Virus record (IMG/VR): IMGVR_UViG_2582580966_000005
Direction: 5' to 3' (one strand)
Length of the DNA: 18,833 nt
DNA from: a virus
Lineage: Duplodnaviria > Heunggongvirae > Uroviricota > Caudoviricetes
The position numbers were made by a program, and so were the translations under genes. How positions within the stretch are numbered: the stretch's first letter is position 1; every line of letters starts with the position of its first letter. The notes under the pieces are model-generated. The model worked only from the letters and a program-made list of their open reading frames with translations. It did not search any database and was not told the origin of the DNA. Shown piece after piece: positions 1,930 to 10,897 of this stretch.

Positions 1930-2751
1930 TTACAGATAATCCGCGACAACCAGCTCCAGCTTGCCCTTCATCTCGTTAGAGACTGTGGCGTTACCGTCTG
2001 CGAACAGCTCGCGCTCCAGCAGCTGCACCGCCTGTTTTTCCAGCGAGGTGGGGACAACAATATGGGTGGGTTTGATGCCGAGTTTGCGGCCACCGTCAGC
2101 CTTAAAGTCACGCATGGCTGCCCAGCCGTGCCACAGCGCATCCAGCGTCAGCGGTGACTGCATCATGTAGGCCATCTGCCAGAAGCCGTAGCCCACATTG
2201 CGACGGGCGGAAGCACCGAACACAAACTCGTTATCAGTAAACGCACGGCCTTCATCGACTTTTGTCTGGGCAACCAGTTCGGCTTTGCGGCGATCCTGAT
2301 AAATCAGCGGTTTTACCGCGCGGGAGCAGTCAAGCAGATACCAGGCCGGGCCGCTGTAATCCGCCTGTGCACCGACAGAGCCGGTTTTTGCCACAAACAT
2401 ATTGCTGACCATCTGTGCATCACCGGAGCCATCCACTTTGGGGTAAACAGGGTGTTCGGTATCAAAGAAGTTCTGGCCGTCATAGCAGGCCGCATTCAGA
2501 CCATCACGCAGTGCAGCAAAGACCAGTTCATCCGGTTGTGCCGCAGCGGCACGACCCATTTCCTGGAATAACGGGGAGTAGATGCCGAGATTGTCGTCTT
2601 CAAAGTCATCGCGGCTATCCGCGTTCGCTTTTGAAAATGCGTCCTTCGGACTCAGCCTTATCCAGCAACTGCTCCAGCGTGGTGCTGCCGTGTTGTGCCG
2701 ACAGCGCGGCATATTCGGTACGCAGGGCGTTATACGTCTCAACGGGCACAT
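1930..2751 (-). CDS. Major capsid protein (Mu T / gp34-like); start unresolved
   Basis: The frame codes convincingly from about 2640 downward (...DDFEDDNLGIYSPLFQEMGRAAAAQPDELVF... to ...KGKLELVVADYL). The only upstream in-frame starts (ATG 2751, TTG 2742, ATG 2712) lie inside the I gene in a stretch with poor codon usage (aga, ata, agg) and four Cys; a stop at 2758..2760 closes the frame. Confidence 0.7.
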   Translation of the reverse strand: MCPLRRITPCVPNMPRCRHNTAAPRWSSCWIRLSPKDAFSKANADSRDDFEDDNLGIYSPLFQEMGRAAAAQPDELVFAALRDGLNAACYDGQNFFDTEHPVYPKVDGSGDAQMVSNMFVAKTGSVGAQADYSGPAWYLLDCSRAVKPLIYQDRRKAELVAQTKVDEGRAFTDNEFVFGASARRNVGYGFWQMAYMMQSPLTLDALWHGWAAMRDFKADGGRKLGIKPTHIVVPTSLEKQAVQLLERELFADGNATVSNEMKGKLELVVADYL

Positions 2752-3529
2752 ATTTCGTCAGATCAATAGTGCCGCCAGTTGGTGTGCCTTTTGCGGTTTC
2801 CAGTTCTGCCGACAGGCTGGCAACCTGCGTTTTCAGGGTGTCGTGCGCATCCGCACGGGTTTTGCTCCCGGTAAGGGCAGACAGCGCCGCCGTGCCCAGT
2901 TCCGGTGTAAATTCGTCACCGTCAGCCACGGTCAGACCGAGCGCCGTCAGCAACTGGCGTAATTGCTCATTCATGGGGGATTGCTCCTGAGAAGGGGAAA
3001 CGACATAGAGATCATCAGCACTGAGTGCCGCGACAGGGTTCATACCCGTAATACCCGGATCATTCGTCAGGGAAGCCATGCGCAACAGGTAGGGCTCCCC
3101 GGTGTCAGCGAAATAATGCATATATGCAGACAGATAGGCATATTCACGGTCATCAATATGTTTTTGTGCCTGTGGTGTCCATTCAGGTTTAATGAAAATC
3201 CCCTGACCCTCACGCCATTCGATGTTTTCCGGCTTAACCCATCCTGCAGCAATAGCCTTGAATCCGTTTTTCTGCGCATTCACGGAGTGATGGTCATAAT
3301 CAATCAGTAACGGCTGATGCAGGGCGGAAAGCCCGGCTTTCATCCGGTTACAGGCGGATTCGTTAATCAGCCAGCCTTCAGTCGGTTTTTCCGGGCGACC
3401 GTCACGGGCCTTTACCCGACCGGCTGGCAGTAACTGACACCATCCGTCGCCGGATGCAGTCAGCGAAGCTGAAAGCACGGCTAAACCGGAGGGGCGATTT
3501 GCGTCTTTTGGGTGATTTTCTGTCTTCAT
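2615..3529 (-). CDS. Protease/scaffold protein (Mu I / gp32-like), 304 aa
   Basis: ATG start; Ala/Leu/Thr-rich coiled-coil-like C-terminal half, consistent with a scaffold domain. My hand translation of 2641..2950 confirms this frame with host-like codon usage. Confidence 0.75.
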   Translation of the reverse strand: MKTENHPKDANRPSGLAVLSASLTASGDGWCQLLPAGRVKARDGRPEKPTEGWLINESACNRMKAGLSALHQPLLIDYDHHSVNAQKNGFKAIAAGWVKPENIEWREGQGIFIKPEWTPQAQKHIDDREYAYLSAYMHYFADTGEPYLLRMASLTNDPGITGMNPVAALSADDLYVVSPSQEQSPMNEQLRQLLTALGLTVADGDEFTPELGTAALSALTGSKTRADAHDTLKTQVASLSAELETAKGTPTGGTIDLTKYVPVETYNALRTEYAALSAQHGSTTLEQLLDKAESEGRIFKSERG

Positions 3530-3706: not shown

Positions 3707-4180
3707 TTACGGCGTTTCTGTGGCCTTTTTAAAGCGTTTTCTGATTTCGTCCATGATCTCCTGTTCTGCCACCTGATCAAAGCCCATATACGGACGTGCG
3801 CCAATGGCCGCCGGTCCCGGTGGCATACCAGGCAGGCCACCCCACTGATGAATGGCTGCATAAGGTTCATTTGATCCAATCAGCGCCCAGGTATCGCCAT
3901 AATCCGTGGTCAGGCGGCGGGCCAGATCGCCGTTCAGCGTCAGGATTTTGCCGGGCGTGTATCCCTTACGGGTACGCCACTCACGGTAAGGATCTGACCA
4001 GTCATGCCAGCGTTCACCATCCGGCTCTTTTTCCTGCTCAAACGCCATTTCTGACGATGACAGAAGACTCGCCGCCACACTGCGGGCCAGGTCTTTTCCG
4101 CCGCCCACAAACTGAAGCCGGGCAAACACTCGCTGGAGACGCGTAACGTCAACAACGACAGCTGCATCAATGGATGACAT
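3707..4180 (-). CDS. Virion morphogenesis protein (Mu G / gp31-like), 157 aa
   Basis: ATG start with GGAGG Shine-Dalgarno; size and position between F and I match Mu G. Confidence 0.7.
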   Translation of the reverse strand: MSSIDAAVVVDVTRLQRVFARLQFVGGGKDLARSVAASLLSSSEMAFEQEKEPDGERWHDWSDPYREWRTRKGYTPGKILTLNGDLARRLTTDYGDTWALIGSNEPYAAIHQWGGLPGMPPGPAAIGARPYMGFDQVAEQEIMDEIRKRFKKATETP

Positions 4181-4301: not shown

Positions 4302-5633
4302 TTAATCAATTTGTCCTTCCAGCACCTCAAGCATTCCGCCCCGGATATCCGATTTCAGCTTATCCATATTGATAACCCGGTAAGCATTCACAATCACATC
4401 CAGTTTGTCGGGCTGACGTTTCAGACTGTACGGTGCATTAACGGCAATCTGCACACTGCCATCCTGATTTTCCACGATATACATCAGATTGTTGTGCCGT
4501 TTGTCCCACAGTACCGCTTTTGGCCTTGCCAGCATTGCCGGTAAGCGCCCGAAGTCCTCCGGCGTCAGAGCGATGCCGTCATTCTGATGTTTCACACTGT
4601 CCGCATGGAGCACATTTTTACCGCTCATCGCCAGCAGGCGGGCCGGTGGCGTTCCCGTCCGGCTTTCCACTGCCTGCGCAATGCTTTCAGTCATAAAGCC
4701 CAGCGTGCGGATATCGTTACCACCTCGCCGGGTCTGCATGATGTTTTTTGCCCAGATGCGGAACGCCAGCTGCCGCTCCGGGCTGTTGTTCATCTCCTGA
4801 ACCACCATTTCCCGTAACGCCGGGCTTTTCACCTCGATCAGTTTGCGGATCAGCGCCTGGTCTGTGCCGAACGCTGCCGAGCCGGGGTTATATGACCAGC
4901 CCACATCCGGTGTCATGGTTCTGGTGCCATCTGAATATGTGGTCACCGGCATTTCTCTGACTTCTCCGGTCTGTTTATCCACGCCAGCCTCAACATTGCG
5001 GGTGGAGAGATGATCCTCACCGGATGAAACGGATAACCCCATTGCATCCAGACGGGCCTGAGACAATGGCCGCACACGGCAGCGGCAGTTCCAGCCATTG
5101 GGCGGGTAGTGTGTTTTCCAGAACGGATCGTCATAGCGGAATACCAGACCGTTAAGGGCGGAATGCGACGGGCGGGTACGGCTGTCCATGACCGCCACAT
5201 ACTGCCAGAACGGATGCGTGTCCGTGTTGTTCATCATCTGCGTGTAACGCCCGGCATTGTAAGCCACACGGGTGTTCACGTTGTAAATCAGCACCAGACG
5301 ACGGGGACTGCCCAGCTGCACTTCTTCCGCGTTACCGTCGCTGTCCACCACAATCTGCTTTCCCCACCATCCCAGCTTTTGCAGGCGTGGCGTCAGTGTG
5401 CGGATAAATTCTTTCTGTGAAATCCCCTCATCAATGGCCCGCTGCACTTCGGCCTGTAATGTGGTTACCACATCCAGCCGTGCCGTTTTTGCTGCCGTGA
5501 ATGAGCGGGCATGAACATCCGCGTCTGTTTCGAACCAGTTCCAGCTGATATGCGCCCCTTTGGCGCGGAAGTATGCCACCGTCTCTTTTGAGGGAAGCGT
5601 GGCGGCATAACCTAAATCAATCCCCTGAGCCAT
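4302..5633 (-). CDS. Head morphogenesis protein (Mu F / gp30-like, SPP1 gp7 family), 443 aa
   Basis: ATG start with AAGGGGA Shine-Dalgarno; overlaps the portal 3-prime end by 17 nt. Central region with conserved-looking motifs (PFWQYVAVMDSRTRPSH, GWNCRCRV) typical of this family. Confidence 0.8.
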   Translation of the reverse strand: MAQGIDLGYAATLPSKETVAYFRAKGAHISWNWFETDADVHARSFTAAKTARLDVVTTLQAEVQRAIDEGISQKEFIRTLTPRLQKLGWWGKQIVVDSDGNAEEVQLGSPRRLVLIYNVNTRVAYNAGRYTQMMNNTDTHPFWQYVAVMDSRTRPSHSALNGLVFRYDDPFWKTHYPPNGWNCRCRVRPLSQARLDAMGLSVSSGEDHLSTRNVEAGVDKQTGEVREMPVTTYSDGTRTMTPDVGWSYNPGSAAFGTDQALIRKLIEVKSPALREMVVQEMNNSPERQLAFRIWAKNIMQTRRGGNDIRTLGFMTESIAQAVESRTGTPPARLLAMSGKNVLHADSVKHQNDGIALTPEDFGRLPAMLARPKAVLWDKRHNNLMYIVENQDGSVQIAVNAPYSLKRQPDKLDVIVNAYRVINMDKLKSDIRGGMLEVLEGQID

Positions 5634-7215
5634 CCAGCATCCCCTTCATTTCCGCAGCAAACATGGCATCACTGAGCAGCGTCATCAGGCGGGAATCATC
5701 CATTTCACGGTAAAGGGCAGGCAGGTCTGCCAGTGCCTCCGCCAGCCCCCGCGTTCTGATGACATCAATGACCGGCTCCAGCACCGGATCGATGGCCTCC
5801 TGTAAGCGGCGGGCAGGCACCGCGTCCCCCATGTCGTCCAGTTCATCACGCGGCGTGTTTTTCGCTTCCGGCAGTCGGGCTGAAAGCGCCGTCTGTTCTG
5901 TCTTTTCCTGTTTTTCCGGTAGCGTTTCCCTGTCAGGCATGGCCGGTTCATTACTGCTCTGACGGACACGGAATATGGCTTCACCGGGCGTGGGCTGTGG
6001 AATACCGGTCTGCTCCCGTACCCAGGGATCAGGAATATCCATCCCCGCACTGAGTTGCATCACCGCACTGGCTATTTTGGTGATATCCCCCGGTTCTTTG
6101 GTCTGGAAACAGATACGCGGCAGGCGACGGATATCAATGGCGTGGGCGGTGTTCAGGGCATACAGCGGATACACCAGATCGCGGTTTAGGGTTGCAGCCA
6201 GCTGGCGTAAATCAGAATCCCTGATTTCCCGGCGCACCTCGTTATGCACCTCACCCAGCGAGCGCGCGCCTTTGTCTCCGGCTTCTGTGGTCAGCGTGCC
6301 GCCGAGTATTGCTTTGGAGATGGAACGCTCACCCCACGAAATCATGGTTTCAAACGGATCGGCCTGACCGTTCGCTGCCGCCTGAAACTCCAGCGACATC
6401 CCGGCCGGGATGATCCCGCCTGTACGTCGCCCGATATCCATCACCGCCCGCATCAGGGCACTTTTCTGCTCCGGTGTTGCCCCGGACGGGTATTTCCCGA
6501 CCTTCATTGGCAGGCCGTACACCTCCAGAAATTCCGCCAGATCGCGCACGGAATAGTTTTTGAAAATGAACGGCCAGATAAGCGTTCTGACAAGCCCCGT
6601 CGCACCACCGTAGCCGGTGCGTGAACGCGACTGATGCACTATCCAGCCAAAGGGCTGAAACGCCACCCCGGCATGGCTGCCGTCACGCAGCCGCAGTTCG
6701 CTCAAATCATCCGGGTTAAGGCAGAAATGCCCGCTGTCACGCCATCGGATGGCGCGGATGATGTGCATCTTACCGAGCATCCCGTGCTCAATCTCCATGC
6801 AGGAATAGCCCTTCAGGATGGCATCGGTGGCATCAAATAACATGGCATCAAACCAGTCGGCGGAATGCAGATATTCGTCGAGCATTTCCGCGTCCTTTTT
6901 CTCATTCGCGCTGGCGTTCGGTGGCGGCTCAATGCTCCATGGCACCCCCTGAATGGCAAGACGTCGCTTGCCCAGCTCCGCAAAAAGGTGGGTGTCCTTT
7001 TCTTCAATGTCAGCCGCCAGATCGGACTGGGCAATCAGATCGCCACGTTCAGCCCCGCGAAGGCACTGCGCCGCCCGGTTCGGGGTGATACCCGAGGCGG
7101 GATGCTCAACATAACGGCTGGCAATCTGCGGAATATCCAGCGCGGTACTTTGCATCTCCGGGTCAAAGGAGAAAGGTTTTCCGTCAAGATCAATTATGCG
7201 TCCCACTACCAGCAC
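5617..7215 (-). CDS. Portal protein (Mu gp29-like, DUF935 family), about 532 aa
   Basis: Track start at 7213..7215 is a GTG overlapping the terminase stop by 10 nt; first in-frame ATG is 20 codons further in. Large protein between terminase and F, as in Mu. Confidence 0.8.
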   Translation of the reverse strand: MLVVGRIIDLDGKPFSFDPEMQSTALDIPQIASRYVEHPASGITPNRAAQCLRGAERGDLIAQSDLAADIEEKDTHLFAELGKRRLAIQGVPWSIEPPPNASANEKKDAEMLDEYLHSADWFDAMLFDATDAILKGYSCMEIEHGMLGKMHIIRAIRWRDSGHFCLNPDDLSELRLRDGSHAGVAFQPFGWIVHQSRSRTGYGGATGLVRTLIWPFIFKNYSVRDLAEFLEVYGLPMKVGKYPSGATPEQKSALMRAVMDIGRRTGGIIPAGMSLEFQAAANGQADPFETMISWGERSISKAILGGTLTTEAGDKGARSLGEVHNEVRREIRDSDLRQLAATLNRDLVYPLYALNTAHAIDIRRLPRICFQTKEPGDITKIASAVMQLSAGMDIPDPWVREQTGIPQPTPGEAIFRVRQSSNEPAMPDRETLPEKQEKTEQTALSARLPEAKNTPRDELDDMGDAVPARRLQEAIDPVLEPVIDVIRTRGLAEALADLPALYREMDDSRLMTLLSDAMFAAEMKGMLDGSGD

Positions 7216-8870
7216 CCCCGATCAAATTCATGATATGCCTCATCGTCATCACGATAACCGCCCTCCATTGCCCGCGACCGCTCCGGCAGCGCCTGACAGG
7301 CTGATTCATCCAGGATGAAACCCTCCATGTATGACGCCCGGTTTGCCATACAGAGTGCCACGGCAAAATCACCATGGCGGCGGGCGTTCGCAGCCGTTGC
7401 GTTCTGGTCCTTCGTGCGCCCCTTGTCGATTTGCGGGATACCATTCACCACCTTCACATGGCGCAAATCATCAAGCGTGGTCTGATGGCGGGCGACGAGG
7501 ATATTCTGATCTTCAAACTCGGCTTTCAGTTTTGGCATCCACTCGCCGTACCACTTCGGCGACAACATCACGCAGTCGATGATGTCCGGGCCAAAGGCCA
7601 GCAGTGCGGCCTCTGCCAGATAGCCGCCGTTACCGGTGGCGTCGAACGCCGCACCGACCAGCGCCGGAACGCGGGTCAGGATGTACATCATCACCTGTTC
7701 CTGCTGGGCATACGGCAGGTTGCGCAGCTCCACGCGAAACACCTCGCGCTTTGCCAGGAGTTCGGTGATTTCCAGCAGCACAAAGCAGGACAGGTCACCG
7801 GTGCGGGCAAAGTCTTCCCCGAAGCTGAAGCGGGAACGGGGATTTAATTTCTCTGTAAGCGGTTTTAAATGTTCTTCACACCAGGTTAAAACTTCCGATT
7901 CACGCAGCCATGCGGCACGGCTGATGAAGTCGTCCGGGGCTTCAAACGTCAGAATCGGGATGTCACGAATCATCGCCATTTCAATAAGCGCGTGAGGAAT
8001 ATAGGCACCGCCGGATTTTTTCGGGATACAGCCGTATTCCTCGTCGGCATCCTCACGGGTCGGGGCGTTTTTGTAGAGATCATCACGCCATTTCTGCTCG
8101 CTTTCCGGTGACCATTCCTGATCGGTGACGTAACAGATACGACGGTACAGCCCGTCCGCAATGGCATCATCCAGGGTTATGCGGTGGACGCTGTAATCCT
8201 TGCGCCCCTCGCGGGCTTCCTGAATGTACTGATTAAACAGATTATCGACGCCGTTATGCGTGGAAATAATGCGCACGCGTGCGCCCCACATGGTAAGCGC
8301 CATTGCCGCCTTGAGAAGCTCATCCAGTGACTCGTGGAACGCGGCTTCATCAATCACCACATCCCCCTGAAGACCGCGCAGGTTTGACGGACGGGAAGAC
8401 AATGCCTGAATTTTGAATCCACTGTTCGGAAAGCGGATCATGTAGGTCAGAATTTCTTCTTTTTTATCCCGATCCCAGAATGTCTGCTCATACACATCAG
8501 CATCTGCCAGCTGGTTAAAGGCACGGGAGAACAGCGCGCAGGCAGAAATATATTCCAGCGCCATCTCCTGTTTTGACCCCACATAAAACACATTACGGCC
8601 ACCACGACGCTTAGGCTTTGCGGCGGTAATGACGTTACGCCCGGCTTCCGCCCAGGTAAGCCCGGTGCGTCGGGATTTCTCCGCGATGCAGACCTGACTT
8701 TCATCTGCAAACCAGCGGGCCTGATAATCCAGAAACACCGGCATATCACCGGGCAAATCAAGGCTGTCCGGCACATCCACGCCCAGCAGGGCTTTTTCAC
8801 CGGACAGATCAATTTTGCGGGGAGGTGTCATTTGTATCAGTGAAGGAGACTTTTCTTTGGCTTTGTTCAT
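7206..8870 (-). CDS. Terminase large subunit (Mu gp28-like), 554 aa
   Basis: ATG at 8868..8870, coupled to the upstream ORF. Size, position upstream of the portal, and ATPase/nuclease-type motifs (e.g. VIDEAAFHE) fit a large terminase. Confidence 0.85.
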   Translation of the reverse strand: MNKAKEKSPSLIQMTPPRKIDLSGEKALLGVDVPDSLDLPGDMPVFLDYQARWFADESQVCIAEKSRRTGLTWAEAGRNVITAAKPKRRGGRNVFYVGSKQEMALEYISACALFSRAFNQLADADVYEQTFWDRDKKEEILTYMIRFPNSGFKIQALSSRPSNLRGLQGDVVIDEAAFHESLDELLKAAMALTMWGARVRIISTHNGVDNLFNQYIQEAREGRKDYSVHRITLDDAIADGLYRRICYVTDQEWSPESEQKWRDDLYKNAPTREDADEEYGCIPKKSGGAYIPHALIEMAMIRDIPILTFEAPDDFISRAAWLRESEVLTWCEEHLKPLTEKLNPRSRFSFGEDFARTGDLSCFVLLEITELLAKREVFRVELRNLPYAQQEQVMMYILTRVPALVGAAFDATGNGGYLAEAALLAFGPDIIDCVMLSPKWYGEWMPKLKAEFEDQNILVARHQTTLDDLRHVKVVNGIPQIDKGRTKDQNATAANARRHGDFAVALCMANRASYMEGFILDESACQALPERSRAMEGGYRDDDEAYHEFDRGCW

Positions 8871-9118
8871 CAGGCTTTACCTGTCAGAATGCTTTTGATT
8901 CGGAACTCAAGCTCTTCAGTCATCACGTCCACGCCACTCAACTCATCAGTGACAGCCCCTGCCAGCAGCGAATGCAGTTGTTCCAGGGATATTTCCCCGG
9001 CAATGCTGAGTTCAGTCAACTCACGACACGCTTTTATGGTTTCAGGAGGTAACTGTGTTGCAAGACTGAATGCCTTCTGATGAGCACTGCTCATCAGTGA
9101 GCGGTTATCTGTTACCAC
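8870..9118 (-). CDS. Small protein (82 aa) sharing the C-terminal motif of the upstream gp27-like protein
   Basis: GTG start at 9116..9118 (checked by hand) with a strong AGGAGGTG Shine-Dalgarno overlapping the gp27-like stop; its stop overlaps the large terminase ATG. C-terminus AVTDELSGVDVMTEELEFRIKSILTGKA parallels AVTDELRGVDGMSEQIEFRIRQMLLGKA. Confidence 0.5.
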   Translation of the reverse strand: MVTDNRSLMSSAHQKAFSLATQLPPETIKACRELTELSIAGEISLEQLHSLLAGAVTDELSGVDVMTEELEFRIKSILTGKA

Positions 9119-9128
9119 GATTCACCTC

Positions 9129-9710
9129 CTACGCCTTACCAAGCAGCATCTGCCTGATACGGAATTCTATCTGCTCGCTCATGCCATCCACGCCGCGCAA
9201 CTCGTCGGTGACGGCGTTCGCCATCTCTTCAGCAAATGCGGCCCGGATTTCTTTTTCACGCTTAATGCTGCGCTCGGCGGCACTTTCCGCACGCTGTGCC
9301 GACAGGAGGATGTCCTTAATAAGGCGCATATCCACATCGCTGTCGCTGTTCAGGGATTCGGTGGCGGCACGCAGACGGCGGTACATCAGGGCACGGGACA
9401 TCTCCAGAATCAGTGCCGTGGTTTCACCGGTCGGCTTATCCCCCAGTTCGGCCATCATGGCTTTTGTCTGCTCGCGTAAATCACGCAGATTACGGGCAAT
9501 CAGCTCATTACGGGAGGCTTCCCGGCTGATGGCCGCCGGTGAAAGCTGCTGCTCTTCCGGCAGGCCTGCCTCACGGATCAGACGGTTGATTTCCTCGCGG
9601 ATCTGGACCTGCGTCAGGCGTTTTTCACGCAGCATTTCCAGCAGCGGCTTACGGATGCTGTCGGGGAGCAAATCCACCTTGCGTACACGGCCACGCGTCG
9701 GCTTATCCAT
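9129..9710 (-). CDS. Mu gp27-like DNA-binding protein (DUF3486 family; putative small terminase-like subunit), 193 aa
   Basis: ATG start with AAGGGGG Shine-Dalgarno. Basic N-terminus (RGRVRKVDLLPDSIRKPLLEMLREKRLTQVQIREEINRL); located two genes upstream of the large terminase. Confidence 0.6.
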   Translation of the reverse strand: MDKPTRGRVRKVDLLPDSIRKPLLEMLREKRLTQVQIREEINRLIREAGLPEEQQLSPAAISREASRNELIARNLRDLREQTKAMMAELGDKPTGETTALILEMSRALMYRRLRAATESLNSDSDVDMRLIKDILLSAQRAESAAERSIKREKEIRAAFAEEMANAVTDELRGVDGMSEQIEFRIRQMLLGKA

Positions 9711-9712
9711 CG

Positions 9713-10003
9713 TTACCCCCTTGCGCGTGGTTTCTTCACACCCGGAACAGTGGCACGACCTTCCGCCACATCCTGACCCCGGCCGGTCAGTTCAGCGATG
9801 AAATAACCGTTAACAAGCGTGCGCTTACGCACCAGTCCCTGCTCAGCAAGCCAGGCAATGTGGGTGTGAACGGTGTCGCGGGACACGCGGTGGCCGTAAT
9901 CATCCAGGCAGTCCTGAAGCACGGATTCGCCCAGTTCGCCGTTGTAATCCGCCAGCGACCGCAGAATGACAAGACGCTGATCTTCAGTAATGAAATCACT
10001 CAT
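9713..10003 (-). CDS. Hypothetical protein (96 aa), Mu gp26 position; possible winged-helix fold
   Basis: ATG start with AAGGA Shine-Dalgarno; overlaps the upstream gene by 8 nt. Confidence 0.5.
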   Translation of the reverse strand: MSDFITEDQRLVILRSLADYNGELGESVLQDCLDDYGHRVSRDTVHTHIAWLAEQGLVRKRTLVNGYFIAELTGRGQDVAEGRATVPGVKKPRARG

Positions 10004-10307
10004 TGTGTTTTTTCCTTACAGCCTGCTCCAGCAGCAGTTCGTTCTGATGAGAGACGGATTTCAGGGTGGCGTTGGTGGCCTTTAGCTCACCGCGCAGGGT
10101 GGTGATTTCGATATTGAGTCTGTTCACCTCCTGCTGCGTGGGCAGGCCGGAAATCCGGCTCTCCACCCGCTCAACCCGATCGGAGAGTTTTTCAAAGGCC
10201 TCGCGGGGGACGAAGGTTTTGCGCATCAGCGCCATGAAGATCCCCCCGGCCGTGGCCGTTGCCGACAGGATCGGCACAACATAATCTTTAACGATGCTGA
10301 CCCACAT
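9996..10307 (-). CDS. Small membrane protein with N-terminal TM helix and coiled-coil C-terminus (103 aa); Mu gp25/DUF2730-like, possible releasin
   Basis: ATG start with GGAGG Shine-Dalgarno. TM segment VVPILSATATAGGIFMALM. Sits after the spanins as in the Mu lysis cassette. The releasin assignment is inferred from position and architecture. Confidence 0.45.
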   Translation of the reverse strand: MWVSIVKDYVVPILSATATAGGIFMALMRKTFVPREAFEKLSDRVERVESRISGLPTQQEVNRLNIEITTLRGELKATNATLKSVSHQNELLLEQAVRKKHNE

Positions 10308-10515
10308 GACCGGCCTCCATGATGTTCTGGCAGTTCACACAACGGATGGCATCCGGCACGGCAACCAGACGGGCAGCCGGAATGTCACCCCCGCAGTCCG
10401 CGCATACACGCCTGCCCGGTGTCTCCGCCACCCGGCGCTTACGTGTCAGCCGGTCACAAAGGGCGCGTTCTGTTGCCCGCTCCATGACAGCCTGAGCACA
10501 ATCTGAATCATCCAT
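10288..10515 (-). CDS. TraR/DksA-family C4 zinc-finger protein (75 aa)
   Basis: ATG at 10513..10515 with AAGGAAAAAGG Shine-Dalgarno, 10 nt after the o-spanin stop; the track start at 10581 has a poorly placed Shine-Dalgarno. Two CxxC pairs (CADCGG ... CVNCQ) at the spacing typical of TraR/DksA. Confidence 0.7.
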   Translation of the reverse strand: MDDSDCAQAVMERATERALCDRLTRKRRVAETPGRRVCADCGGDIPAARLVAVPDAIRCVNCQNIMEAGHVGQHR

Positions 10516-10525
10516 ACCTTTTTCC

Positions 10526-10897
10526 TTACTTCGTCTTTCCTGCCGGAACAGCAGGCGTTCCGGCCATATCAGTAAATTCATGTTGTCGCCGCGCCTCCAG
10601 ACGACGAATACTGGCCTTGTCCACGTTGCAGTTCTTGATCACCGCCAGCAGTTGCAGGTTGTAAGTGACCGATGCCCCAAACGTGAACGGCTCCGGCGCA
10701 GGAGGGACCAGGCAGTCAGCCAGCCATTCAGCGGGGATCGGAACCGGCTGCACAGGCACGTATTTCACAGACGGCCCGGCGCACCCGCTCAGCCACATCA
10801 TCAGGCACAGGAACAGAGGCCGCAGGCACTGTTGCCAGCGACCGGCGGACAACGCTCTGCTGCTCCTCGCTGTGCTGAATGTTCTGTTGCTTTTCAT
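10526..10897 (-). CDS. Putative o-spanin (outer-membrane lipoprotein, Rz1-like), overlapping the i-spanin; start uncertain
   Basis: Lipobox-like LSGC with an upstream hydrophobic stretch (RPLFLCLMMWLSGCAGP), followed by a proline-rich mature region. ATG at 10895..10897 is the most upstream ATG before the lipobox, giving an unusually long signal region. Confidence 0.5.
   Translation of the reverse strand: MKSNRTFSTARSSRALSAGRWQQCLRPLFLCLMMWLSGCAGPSVKYVPVQPVPIPAEWLADCLVPPAPEPFTFGASVTYNLQLLAVIKNCNVDKASIRRLEARRQHEFTDMAGTPAVPAGKTK

Follow-up and report, generated by a model that had tools for sequence, protein, structure and literature searches.

The window analyzed here (the whole stretch of 18,833 nucleotides of the virus record IMGVR_UViG_2582580966_000005) belongs to an E. 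coli Mu-like prophage, and all genes of the locus under study lie on its minus strand (Table 1). They are gp27, encoding the small terminase subunit (TerS), a short open reading frame that we refer to as the mini-gene, and the gene for the large terminase (TerL), which is syntenic with Mu gp28. The gp27 product matches Pfam PF11985 (Phage_Mu_Gp27) over its full length (E 3e-33; 116 bits against a cut-off of 28) and PHROG phrog_426, 'terminase small subunit' (E 9e-55), and the identical protein (WP_000360580.1) is encoded by every E. coli relative fetched. The mini-gene is embedded in the late operon. A scan for promoters and terminators revealed neither a sigma-70-like promoter nor a convincing terminator on the minus strand flanking it, and it thus lacks the promoter and terminator of its own that are the classical trait of a moron. 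It does show the traits of an accessory ORF, being short, located between core genes in a non-homologous segment, and variably present. No RNA family was returned by an Rfam scan of the window.

Table 1. Features of the gp27-TerL locus, with positions in the window
Feature	Position	Strand	Remarks
gp27, small terminase subunit (TerS)	9129..9710	minus	193 aa; C-terminus AVTDELRGVDGMSEQIEFRIRQMLLGKA
Tail A, last 31 codons of gp27, MANAVTDELRGVDGMSEQIEFRIRQMLLGKA	9132..9224	minus	conserved C-terminal motif of the family
Spacer between gp27 and mini-gene	9119..9129	minus	Shine-Dalgarno GGAGGTG (9123-9129), its first G is also the last base of the gp27 stop TAG
Mini-gene ORF	8870..9118	minus	GTG start; 82 aa; C-terminus AVTDELSGVDVMTEELEFRIKSILTGKA
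Mini-gene N-domain, residues 1-54	8957..9118	minus	unnamed 'post-gp27' small-protein family (family A)
Tail B, mini-gene residues 52-82, LAGAVTDELSGVDVMTEELEFRIKSILTGKA	8873..8965	minus	captured gp27-type C-terminal motif
TGATG, overlap of mini-gene stop and TerL start	8868..8872	minus	putative translational coupling point, read from sequence
TerL, large terminase, homologue of Mu gp28	7206..8870	minus	554 aa; PHROG phrog_2, E 6e-43
TerL codons 1-17, hypervariable	8820..8870	minus	same mosaic cassette as tail B

The original prediction had assigned a strong Shine-Dalgarno sequence and a GTG start to the mini-gene, and both were confirmed, with GGAGGTG lying 4 nt upstream of the GTG. Predicted pairing energies with the anti-Shine-Dalgarno sequence are -11.5 kcal/mol for the mini-gene, -11.8 for gp27 and -3.8 for TerL. 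The perfect 7-nt Shine-Dalgarno sequence is kept at the correct spacing in all mini-gene alleles and in distant members of its protein family, and the start codon is ATG or GTG in every allele. The proposed linkage to the TerL ATG takes the form of an overlap, in which the stop codon TGA (8870-8872) and the ATG (8868-8870) share one base. A better TerL site (-6.4) exists only in an uncoupled arrangement of the locus (Type III), and where the mini-gene has been deleted (Type IV) a 9-codon leader keeps the strong Shine-Dalgarno sequence and still ends on the TerL start. Since the TerL ribosome-binding site is weak and its start lies on the mini-gene stop, coupling probably keeps the frame open, and TerL would probably be expressed by translational coupling from the mini-gene.

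The similarity between the C-termini of the mini-protein and gp27, on which the original prediction was built, is significant. Over the stretch quoted there 19 of 28 positions are identical, and pairwise BLASTP aligns mini-protein residues 52-82 with gp27 residues 163-193 (20 of 31 identical, 26 of 31 positive, E 1e-12). That the two proteins share nothing outside this region also stands, as hhalign of the two family alignments aligns the tail alone. BLASTP and hhalign cover only the last 27-31 residues, and the mini-protein is therefore without the gp27 body (residues 1-160), the presumed seat of DNA recognition and oligomerization. As an independent check against PHROGs, gp27 matches the mini-gene profile phrog_30922 at residues 162-193 only (E 6e-8); the mini-protein matches neither phrog_426 nor, at E <= 0.1, any Pfam family. 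In DNA, tails A and B are about 64-66% identical, with 11 synonymous codon differences, and an identity of only 66% argues against a recent duplication.

The C-terminal tail is the best-conserved part of gp27 when E. coli, Mu and a Vibrio phage are compared, and 33 distinct tails define the motif a-v-x-x-e-L-r-G-x-d-G-m-S-e-x-l-E-x-x-i-r-x-x-L-l-G-k-a, where capitals are invariant. The last 13 residues of tail A, IEFRIRQMLLGKA, deviate from the family consensus LExRI+xxLLGKA and mark the left homology break relative to prophages that lack the mini-gene (Type I). Tail B retains about 13 of 17 conserved positions. Compared with the 33 gp27 tails it carries R172S, G176V, S178T and L190T in all alleles, G176 and S178 being invariant and R172 and L190 near-invariant in gp27; in some alleles the invariant G173 or L181 is replaced as well (G173S, L181P).

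The N-terminal part of the mini-protein has a separate origin. In a search of 1.8 billion proteins, a tail-less protein of 67 aa (P0012) was found to be 57% identical to mini-protein residues 1-54 (E 3e-7), and ORFs at two further loci (L052 and L053) match the N-domain in BLASTP (E 1e-6 to 4e-7). A profile search with this family (family A) recovered 58 proteins of 49-89 aa (56-89 aa when full-length; E down to 1e-19), all annotated as hypothetical and none with a Pfam domain. Their N-domain of about 55 aa follows the pattern AH..AF ... C/R ... G.S ... QL..L, which the mini-protein fits. Mu-like prophages of E. coli, Salmonella, Citrobacter, Kluyvera and Mixta encode family A genes that start 8-10 nt past the gp27 stop, and more distant tail-less homologues also occur in IMG/VR. 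In the other genera their Shine-Dalgarno sequence is built on the gp27 stop (TAG-GRG), and in the window the spacer is 10 nt long, TAGGAGGTG. Members found elsewhere have no gp27 tail, the 28-aa tail being confined to the E. coli members with the arrangement of the window (Type II), and hhalign joins family A to gp27 solely via the tail of these E. coli members. The comparisons show that the N-terminal three-helix domain derives from a family of 56-89-aa proteins encoded right after gp27 in many Mu-like prophages; its behavior is that of an accessory ('moron-like') gene that is dispensable and evolves fast. A derivation of the N-domain from the TerL N-terminus, suggested by an 'SL..PP..I' likeness, was dropped when the true tail-less homologues were found.

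The AlphaFold2 (AF2) model of the mini-protein contains three helices (residues 5-20, 25-39 and 45-60; pLDDT 73-86) and, within tail B, a low-confidence helix at residues 68-79 (pLDDT 47-65). A Foldseek search of the PDB with this model yielded nothing below E 0.16 and only generic helical matches, and a PDB sequence search revealed no relative of the mini-protein or of gp27. NCBIfam held no match for the mini-protein, and PADLOC-DB none for it or for five family A members. Over residues 1-82 the mini-protein does match phrog_30922 (PHROGs v4, 82 positions; E 7.6e-57), and this full-length match means that the sequence family has already been catalogued; the entry has no function, and the chimeric build and the gp27 tail are not recorded there.

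The remainder of the mini-gene corresponds to a junction found in E. coli prophages that lack it. Mini-protein residues 55-82, the TGATG and TerL codons 1-17 line up without interruption with the junction of gp27 and TerL in Type I prophages, in which TGATG also joins gp27 to TerL, and window positions 8790-8965 align with this junction in about 205 E. coli genomes without the mini-gene (99% coverage, about 77% identity). Tail B is 71% identical in amino acids and 77% in nucleotides to the Type I gp27 tail, versus 65% and 64% to resident tail A; the tail of the mini-gene is thus nearer to that of Type I gp27 than to that of its own gp27, and this holds for both halves. Between tail B and the Type I tail pS is 0.47 and pN 0.14, which indicates that most of the divergence of tail B arose inside a still-constrained gp27. 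These results show that the last 28-31 residues, the TGATG and TerL codons 1-17 are a second, Type-I-like gp27 3' end together with its TerL junction.

Relative to Mu and the Type I prophages the insert measures exactly 259 bp, and the homology break-points against relatives coincide exactly with the borders of N-domain, tail and TerL start; homology to the Type IV relatives restarts only at about 8840. The locus encoding P0012 (L010) has the same gp27, the same Shine-Dalgarno sequence and the same mini-gene codons 1-35 as the window, and differs beyond codon 35, where it has another C-terminus that lacks the tail, a gap of 120 nt and another TerL N-terminus. Three unrelated TerL N-termini (MNKAKEKSPSLIQMT..., MNNAEELSPLLTNTVST... 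and MSKRTGEEKIKPDTGLIKLS...) occur on TerL proteins that are otherwise 96-99% identical. The tail-less N-domain family, the Type I-collinear tail and TerL start and the matching break-points lend good support to the earlier suggestion that the repeat is the scar of a recombination junction. A donor search encountered no E. coli genome in which identity between the gp27/TerL junction and tail B exceeds 80%, and the recombination history is for this reason a reconstruction. The Type I tail is itself mixed, its first half being 88% identical to A and 75% to B, its second half 61% to A and 78% to B. This had suggested that a crossover joining tail A to tail B turned Type II into Type I, an idea that was rejected, B being only 78% identical; this value, and the sharing of the Type I layout by Mu and Vibrio phages, indicate that the Type I layout is ancestral. 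The A-then-B pattern reflects the left cassette border inside tail A.

The distribution of the arrangement was assessed across gp27 loci. Among about 120 other gp27 loci none carries a second copy of the gp27 tail, which occurs only where gp27 is 100% identical to that of the window. The arrangement is viable: 25 complete E. coli genomes carry it, with up to three copies per genome, and each of them has the mini-gene annotated as a CDS. It is confined to one narrow E. coli prophage lineage. The mini-gene is absent from Mu, D108, SfMu and the Type I prophages; among complete E. coli genomes Type III was found in none and Type IV in one. Over 130 gp27 loci the distance separating gp27 from TerL varies between -4 and about 850 nt, and 0-3 small ORFs, belonging to at least two families, lie within it. 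The original prediction had named loss of the ORF from otherwise identical relatives as evidence against it, and essentially such a loss is seen in E. coli CI5 and two IMG/VR contigs (L025 and L030), the Type IV relatives, where a 9-codon remnant, MATDWFSYE*, overlaps the TerL start. They share with the window the gp27 protein and a 99%-identical TerL, and both flanks are 96-97% identical. The disrupted alleles P0008-P0011 were uninformative: two had no entry on record, one, from a Logan contig of 1.5 kb, carries a frameshift, and one is a large deletion or chimera.

Pooled dN/dS is 0.45 for the mini-gene, 0.008 for gp27, 0.04 for gp26 and 0.08 for TerL. Counted as events, 20 synonymous and 31 non-synonymous changes in the mini-gene give an omega of about 0.64, at which neutrality is not rejected (P = 0.08). 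Within the lineage omega is about 0.5-0.6 for the mini-gene and 0.01-0.13 for its neighbors (gp27 about 0.01-0.02; TerL about 0.08-0.13), and reaches about 1.5 in TerL codons 2-20. Evolution of the mini-gene within the lineage is thus almost neutral.

With moderate confidence, we interpret the 82-codon ORF as a translated, weakly constrained chimeric accessory gene generated by recombination at a TerS/TerL hot spot. A phage with the order gp27, small gene, gap and TerL would have recombined in frame with one whose gp27 overlaps TerL, the crossover probably falling at shared Ala-x-Ala codons directly ahead of VTDEL. Selection would then mainly maintain the passage of ribosomes from the strong mini-gene site to the start codon of TerL, whose own site is weak and which, judging from the sequence, would be expressed by translational coupling. 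The tail-coding DNA may have been kept because the TerL initiation region lies in it, and the peptide that it encodes would be largely a passenger, decaying slowly; it may still bind TerL weakly, but such binding would not be what maintains the gene. Two observations sit less easily with this account. The ORF is intact in all of about 10 distinct alleles and both indels at the domain border (P0002 and P0003) are in frame, the chance of finding no stop being 0.24 under neutrality, and tail omega (about 0.3-0.45) is the lowest within the mini-gene and below that of the N-domain, so that the tail may be under some amino-acid constraint. On the whole, the locus looks like ordinary phage mosaicism and not like a proven new packaging regulator.

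A possible but doubtful reading, close to the role first proposed for the mini-gene, is that its product docks, through the borrowed TerS tail, at the TerL site used by gp27 and thereby competes with or regulates the assembly of the terminase, or else serves as an adaptor. As an adaptor it would bring the N-domain to the packaging motor. The target might also be the TerL of a co-resident Type I prophage; strain 48 appears to hold both Type I and Type II copies (four junction matches against two mini-gene matches). Docking of a TerS C-terminus on the N-terminus of TerL is known from lambda (gpNu1 on gpA) and from P22 (gp3 residues 140-162 on gp2 residues 1-58; PMC9611059). The motif repeated here likewise lies at the extreme C-terminus of TerS, no part of gp27 is better conserved, and motif type and TerL type vary together. 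Across the 92 loci, of 110 scored, whose TerL residues 61-554 are less than 90% identical to the window, tail type switches with TerL type, independently of the gp27 body: one locus (L150) shows 17% identity in the gp27 body, 71% in the tail and 67% in TerL, and another (L110) 53%, 18% and 46%. This indirectly supports a tie between gp27 tail and TerL, and by analogy with lambda and P22 the tail is likely the TerL-contacting element of Mu-like phages. The association is nevertheless confounded, tail and TerL being adjacent DNA.

For the mini-protein itself, the strong Shine-Dalgarno sequence and late-operon position predict that it should be made together with TerL, and its largely retained conserved positions and low tail omega would also fit docking. 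Against docking stand the near-neutral evolution of the gene as a whole, the replacement in all alleles of two invariant and two near-invariant tail residues, with G173 or L181 lost in some, the restriction of the arrangement to a single narrow lineage, the normally tail-less state of family A and the loss of the gene in near-identical relatives. Unlike in lambda and P22, the motif here is also carried by a second, non-TerS protein without the DNA-binding and oligomerization parts. Two unrelated TerL N-termini are compatible with gp27 tail A, which excludes TerL residues 1-20 as the specific docking site; the AF2 monomer of TerL (mean pLDDT 45, shallow alignment) was not usable. That the tail-tagged accessory protein docks on its own or a competing Type I TerL and so tunes or sabotages terminase assembly is, in our estimate, unlikely. 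Precedents for a competitor exist in PICI Rpp and SaPI Ppi, small helical proteins that interfere with terminase assembly and, by binding the TerS of the phage, divert packaging or stop it (PMC6739421). They differ in being satellite-encoded, in binding TerS and not TerL, and in the absence of TerS-tail mimicry; homology of the mini-protein to them was neither expected nor found. Our literature search revealed no paper on a Mu gp27/gp28 interaction or on this small gene, and no description of a natural free-standing 'TerS-tail' protein.

It is very improbable that the mini-ORF is a chance open frame in a mosaic spacer, neither translated nor selected. An omega that is statistically not separable from 1, the non-significant absence of stops (P = 0.24) and the lack of Pfam, NCBIfam, PADLOC or PDB matches are in keeping with such a frame, but it would not be expected to keep a 7-nt Shine-Dalgarno sequence at the correct spacing and an ATG or GTG start throughout, to belong to a family recognizable across genera at the same position, to have a three-helix fold predicted at moderate confidence, or to provide the stop codon on which a TerL without a good Shine-Dalgarno sequence of its own starts. 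A tandem duplication of the last ~259 bp of the resident gp27, with its upstream part diverged beyond recognition, would explain the exact 259-bp insert and the direct repeat of the tail, but is hardly credible and was rejected, since no DNA repeat is detectable outside the tail and hhalign aligns the tail only, homologues of the N-domain in other genera are tail-less while the gp27 body shows no likeness to it, Type I tails are closer matches to tail B than tail A is, and the TerL N-terminus co-varies with the cassette.

The reading of the mini-gene as a recombinant accessory gene has parallels in Pseudomonas Mu-like phages, where accessory ORFs, including an anti-CRISPR locus, occupy regions of genomic plasticity (Cazares et al. 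2014, PMC4378225), and in phage hyper-variability hot spots in general (bioRxiv 10.1101/2024.10.15.618418). The ORFs in those regions are short (34-100 codons) and uncharacterized, lie between core late genes, vary in presence among close relatives, evolve fast and have homology breaks on either side, and the gp27-TerL junction behaves likewise. The Pseudomonas hot spot lies at G/protease, whereas the one described here lies between TerS and TerL in Enterobacterales hosts and has no sequence relation to it, and, unlike the Pseudomonas cargo ORFs, the cargo gene here is fused to a piece of the adjacent core gene.

If the recombination reading is correct, the locus would be a clean, datable case of phage mosaicism building a new fusion ORF, in which an accessory gene became fused, in frame, with a core gene's 3' end for the reason that the translation start of the next gene sits there, and it would illustrate that an ORF can persist by translational coupling and not by protein function. 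Should the tail be functional, the mini-gene product would be a natural TerL-binding mini-protein, of interest for packaging regulation or phage-phage competition. The gp27/TerL junction of enterobacterial Mu-like phages emerges as a previously unremarked cargo hot spot with at least two uncharacterized small-protein families, and the C-terminal 30-45 residues of gp27 co-vary with TerL as a unit, a pointer to the TerS/TerL contact in Mu; both may prove more useful than the mini-gene itself.

The window belongs to a Mu-like prophage of E. coli and matches several complete genomes, FORC_069 for one, at 100% identity. On the minus strand, the gene for a gp26-like protein is followed by gp27 (the small terminase, TerS), a spacer, the mini-ORF, the large terminase gene (TerL) and the portal gene. 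BLASTP aligned residues 52-82 of the mini-protein (tail B) with residues 163-193 of gp27 (tail A), with significant similarity (20/31 identities, E 1e-12) and no other alignment, and in a profile-profile comparison of the two families the tail was the sole aligned part. The original prediction of a shared C-terminal motif on otherwise unrelated proteins therefore holds, and the strong Shine-Dalgarno (SD) sequence (GGAGGTG) and the overlap of the mini stop with the TerL start (TGATG) are present as it described.

Positions of the genes and small ORFs discussed
Feature	Locus	Position	Strand	Match or remark
gp26-like winged-helix protein	window	9713-10003	minus	
gp27 (TerS)	window	9129-9710	minus	Pfam Phage_Mu_Gp27, E 3e-33
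Spacer gp27/mini-ORF	window		minus	10 nt
Mini-ORF	window	8870-9118	minus	82 codons, GTG start
TerL	window	7206-8870	minus	PHROG 'terminase large subunit', E 6e-43
Portal	window	5617-7215	minus	
Tail B, junction, first TerL codons	window	8790-8965		
TerL codons 2-20	window	8811-8867		
TraR/DksA zinc-finger ORF	window	10288-10581		
9-codon remnant ORF	L151 (E. coli CI5)	4032-4063		
9-codon remnant ORF	L025	3083-3114		
9-codon remnant ORF	L030	about 2477-2508		
Second-family ORF	L055	3254-3451		BLASTP
Second-family ORF	L057	3093-3299		BLASTP
Second-family ORF	L060	3262-3465		BLASTP
Second-family ORF	L074	3249-3440		BLASTP
Second-family ORF	L076	3247-3444		BLASTP
Second-family ORF	L080	about 3090-3284		BLASTP
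Other small ORF	L087	3070-3243		
Other small ORF	L097	3067-3255		
Other small ORF	L145	3055-3309		
Other small ORF	L116	3067-3261		
Salmonella family-A ORF	L044	3090-3353		
Split gp27	L083	2823-3080		
Split gp27	L120, L126, L106	around 2830		

TerL gave no Pfam or NCBIfam match at E <= 0.1 and was recognised by PHROGs only; RefSeq annotation of E. coli genomes lists it as a 'hypothetical protein', and its Mu homologue gp28 is a 'putative portal protein' in RefSeq NC_000929 versus terminase large subunit in AF083977. The TraR/DksA ORF spans 97 aa from its first ATG, versus 75 aa annotated in RefSeq relatives, and its start is ambiguous because its 5' part overlaps an Rz1/LysC-like region.

At the DNA level the two tails share 66% identity and differ by synonymous changes at 11 codons, which rules out a recent local duplication. 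Tail B is nearer, in both halves, to the tails of Type I loci, where gp27 abuts TerL without a mini-ORF (77% nt and 71% aa identity, versus 64% and 65% with tail A), and the window segment made up of tail B, the junction and the first TerL codons aligns over 99% of its length, at ~77% identity, with the Type I gp27/TerL junction. By its sequence, the C-terminal part of the mini-gene represents the 3' end of a different gp27. Between tail B and a Type I tail pS was 0.47 and pN 0.14, so most of the divergence accrued under purifying selection, presumably for the most part inside a working gp27 of an unsampled lineage; no donor more than 80% identical to tail B was found. Resident and Type I gp27 share 97% identity, with almost all differences falling in the last 13 residues (IEFRIRQMLLGKA in the resident versus LESRIKGILLGKA in Type I); this marks the cassette's left border, and its right border is at TerL codon 11-18.

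The N-terminal part is, from its relatives, assignable to a separate gene family. An all-against-library search identified P0012 (67 aa), 57% identical to mini residues 1-54. Its locus (L010; Type III, with a tail-less small gene) encodes an identical gp27 protein with the same SD and a gene homologous to mini codons 1-35; beyond codon 35 this gene encodes a different C-terminal half that lacks the gp27 tail, and a 120-nt gap separates it from a TerL whose first 20 residues are unrelated. A survey of 130 loci with a gp27 relative, drawn from 80 IMG/VR contigs and 50 species genomes, showed that this junction is variable: the gp27-TerL gap spans -4 to about 850 nt and contains 0-3 small ORFs. 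Many of these ORFs begin 8-10 nt downstream of the gp27 stop, use an SD that incorporates the TAG stop, and show homology to the mini N-domain (BLASTP E 1e-6 to 1e-12). A profile search with this family (family A) collected 58 'hypothetical' proteins (49-89 aa; 56-89 aa for full-length members), none with a Pfam domain, in Salmonella, Citrobacter, Mixta and E. coli; only the E. coli form of the window arrangement (Type II) carries the gp27 tail. With the family alignment, AlphaFold2 predicted three helices for mini residues 5-60 (pLDDT 73-86) and, at low confidence, a loop plus helix for the tail; Foldseek with this model returned no informative match.

The mini-ORF as the scar of a recombination junction, also raised in the original prediction, is well supported by a tail-less N-domain family and by the collinearity of tail B with the Type I junction. 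The simplest history would be in-frame recombination between Type III-like and Type I-like genomes near the shared Ala-x-Ala codons before VTDEL. Type I and Type II may plausibly meet in one cell, as strain 48 gave four junction matches versus two mini-gene matches.

Other small ORFs occupy the same junction. A second family, unrelated to family A, comprises 63-68-aa ORFs with the pattern '..ELALELYPVVK..ALYLLMQMVDGP..AG..' (BLASTP E 1e-9 to 1e-32 among members), located directly after gp27 or behind a family-A gene in other Mu-like prophages, and further unrelated ORFs in distant lineages include two strongly hydrophobic, membrane-like ones of 57-62 aa. A Salmonella family-A subfamily (83-89 aa; L044, P0054-P0063) terminates in '...AERLRGAELYLFVRYFVGKTS', with the gene overlapping the start of TerL; its 'LRG...GK' spacing, a very short similarity, hints at a second, far more decayed gp27-tail remnant. 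At several loci a frameshift or stop divides gp27 in two; the second ORF (78-85 aa) resembles a small tail-bearing protein and is actually the gp27 C-terminal half, a possible source of false 'mini-TerS' calls.

The mini-gene is present in 25 of 5,426 complete E. coli genomes (87-100% identity, up to 3 copies per genome) and annotated as a CDS in all 25; ~205 further genomes carry Type I. Full-length relatives came from E. coli only (79-98% identity; 5.8 billion plus 1.8 billion proteins searched), and the sequence is already catalogued as phrog_30922, an entry with no assigned function. The mini-ORF is absent from Mu, D108, SfMu and related Yersinia phages. It is also lacking in the nearest phage-collection records, Mu-like elements (flanks ~91% identical) that sit within Stx phages; in all of these mini-less phages a 1301-nt query maps to ~1042 nt, with 259 nt missing. 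Among the surveyed gp27 loci, a tail HMM detected a second tail copy only where gp27 is 100% identical to the window's.

Three loci (E. coli CI5 and the IMG/VR contigs L025 and L030; Type IV) encode the same gp27 protein and a TerL 99% identical to the window's, and their flanking DNA on both sides is 96-97.5% identical to the window, versus 91-94% for Type I relatives. Between gp27 and TerL they hold only ATG GCA ACA GAC TGG TTT AGT TAT GAG TAA. This 9-codon ORF (MATDWFSYE, then stop), a Type III gene remnant with the strong mini-gene SD, overlaps the TerL start and looks like a minimal coupling leader after deletion of the Type III small gene. The mini-ORF is therefore missing from near-identical relatives, in essence the outcome that the original prediction had named as counting against its proposal.

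Pooled dN/dS over eight alleles was 0.008 for gp27, 0.04 for gp26, 0.08 for TerL (~1.5 for its codons 2-20) and 0.45 for the mini-gene, whose 20 synonymous and 31 non-synonymous events (omega about 0.64) were not distinguishable from neutrality (P = 0.08); the lack of stop codons in its alleles was not significant (P = 0.24). The wider family A also evolves fast: omega ranged from 0.1 to 1.3, compared with about 0.05-0.08 for the gp27 genes of those pairs. Set against 33 distinct gp27 tails, all alleles of tail B carry substitutions at the invariant G176 and S178 and the near-invariant R172 and L190, and some also at G173 or L181.

The mini-gene and gp27 have predicted anti-SD pairing of -11.5 and -11.8 kcal/mol, respectively. 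For TerL it was -3.8 in Types I and II, where its ATG overlaps the upstream stop, -6.4 in Type III, where it is uncoupled, and -2.2 in the Type IV deletion, where the strong-SD leader ends on its start. These values are consistent with translational coupling of TerL to any upstream ORF, and such coupling would explain why any rearrangement at the junction must bring the gp27 3' end along with TerL. Coupling probably holds the mini-ORF open; it would select an open frame through to TGATG and leave the peptide unconstrained. A recombination scar retained through translational coupling is the best-supported reading, and we judge it somewhat better than even.

The other proposal, that the mini-protein is a functional competitor or adaptor docking on TerL, is possible but less likely. 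The TerS C-terminus binds the TerL N-terminus in lambda and P22 (PMC9611059), and no structure or mapping for Mu gp27/gp28 was found in the PDB or the literature; against putative binding stand the near-neutral evolution of the mini-gene, its replaced invariant tail residues and its loss in close relatives. Tail A, as one sequence, is paired with TerLs having unrelated first 20 residues, so these residues are not the specific docking site.

At 92 of 110 scored loci, those whose TerL 61-554 shares <90% identity with the window, the tails fell into two classes of identity to the window tail (0.61-0.82 or 0.14-0.29). Tail class switches with TerL identity (at least 0.66, or at most 0.55), and gp27 body identity varies independently, as at L150 (body 17%, tail 71%, TerL 67%), L119 (32%, 82%, 68%) and L110 (53%, 18%, 46%). 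This agrees with a co-adapted tail-TerL unit, with physical adjacency as a confounder. Conservation of gp27 residues 150-193 across L021-L150 is bimodal and tracks TerL class, not the gp27 body. The TerL N-terminus is hypervariable, with three unrelated versions of codons 2-20 on TerLs otherwise 96-99% identical (omega about 1.5 within the Type II lineage).

Together, these results settle the origin of the mini-gene fairly well, as a chimeric accessory ORF built at a TerS/TerL cargo hot spot, in which tail B is a copy of the C-terminal TerS motif that was captured and is slowly decaying. As phage mosaic or moron-like cargo it is of a known kind and of modest interest. Two other results are more reusable: the hot spot, together with the small-protein families found there, and the tail-TerL co-variation, which suggests that TerS tail and TerL form a specificity module in Mu-like phages.
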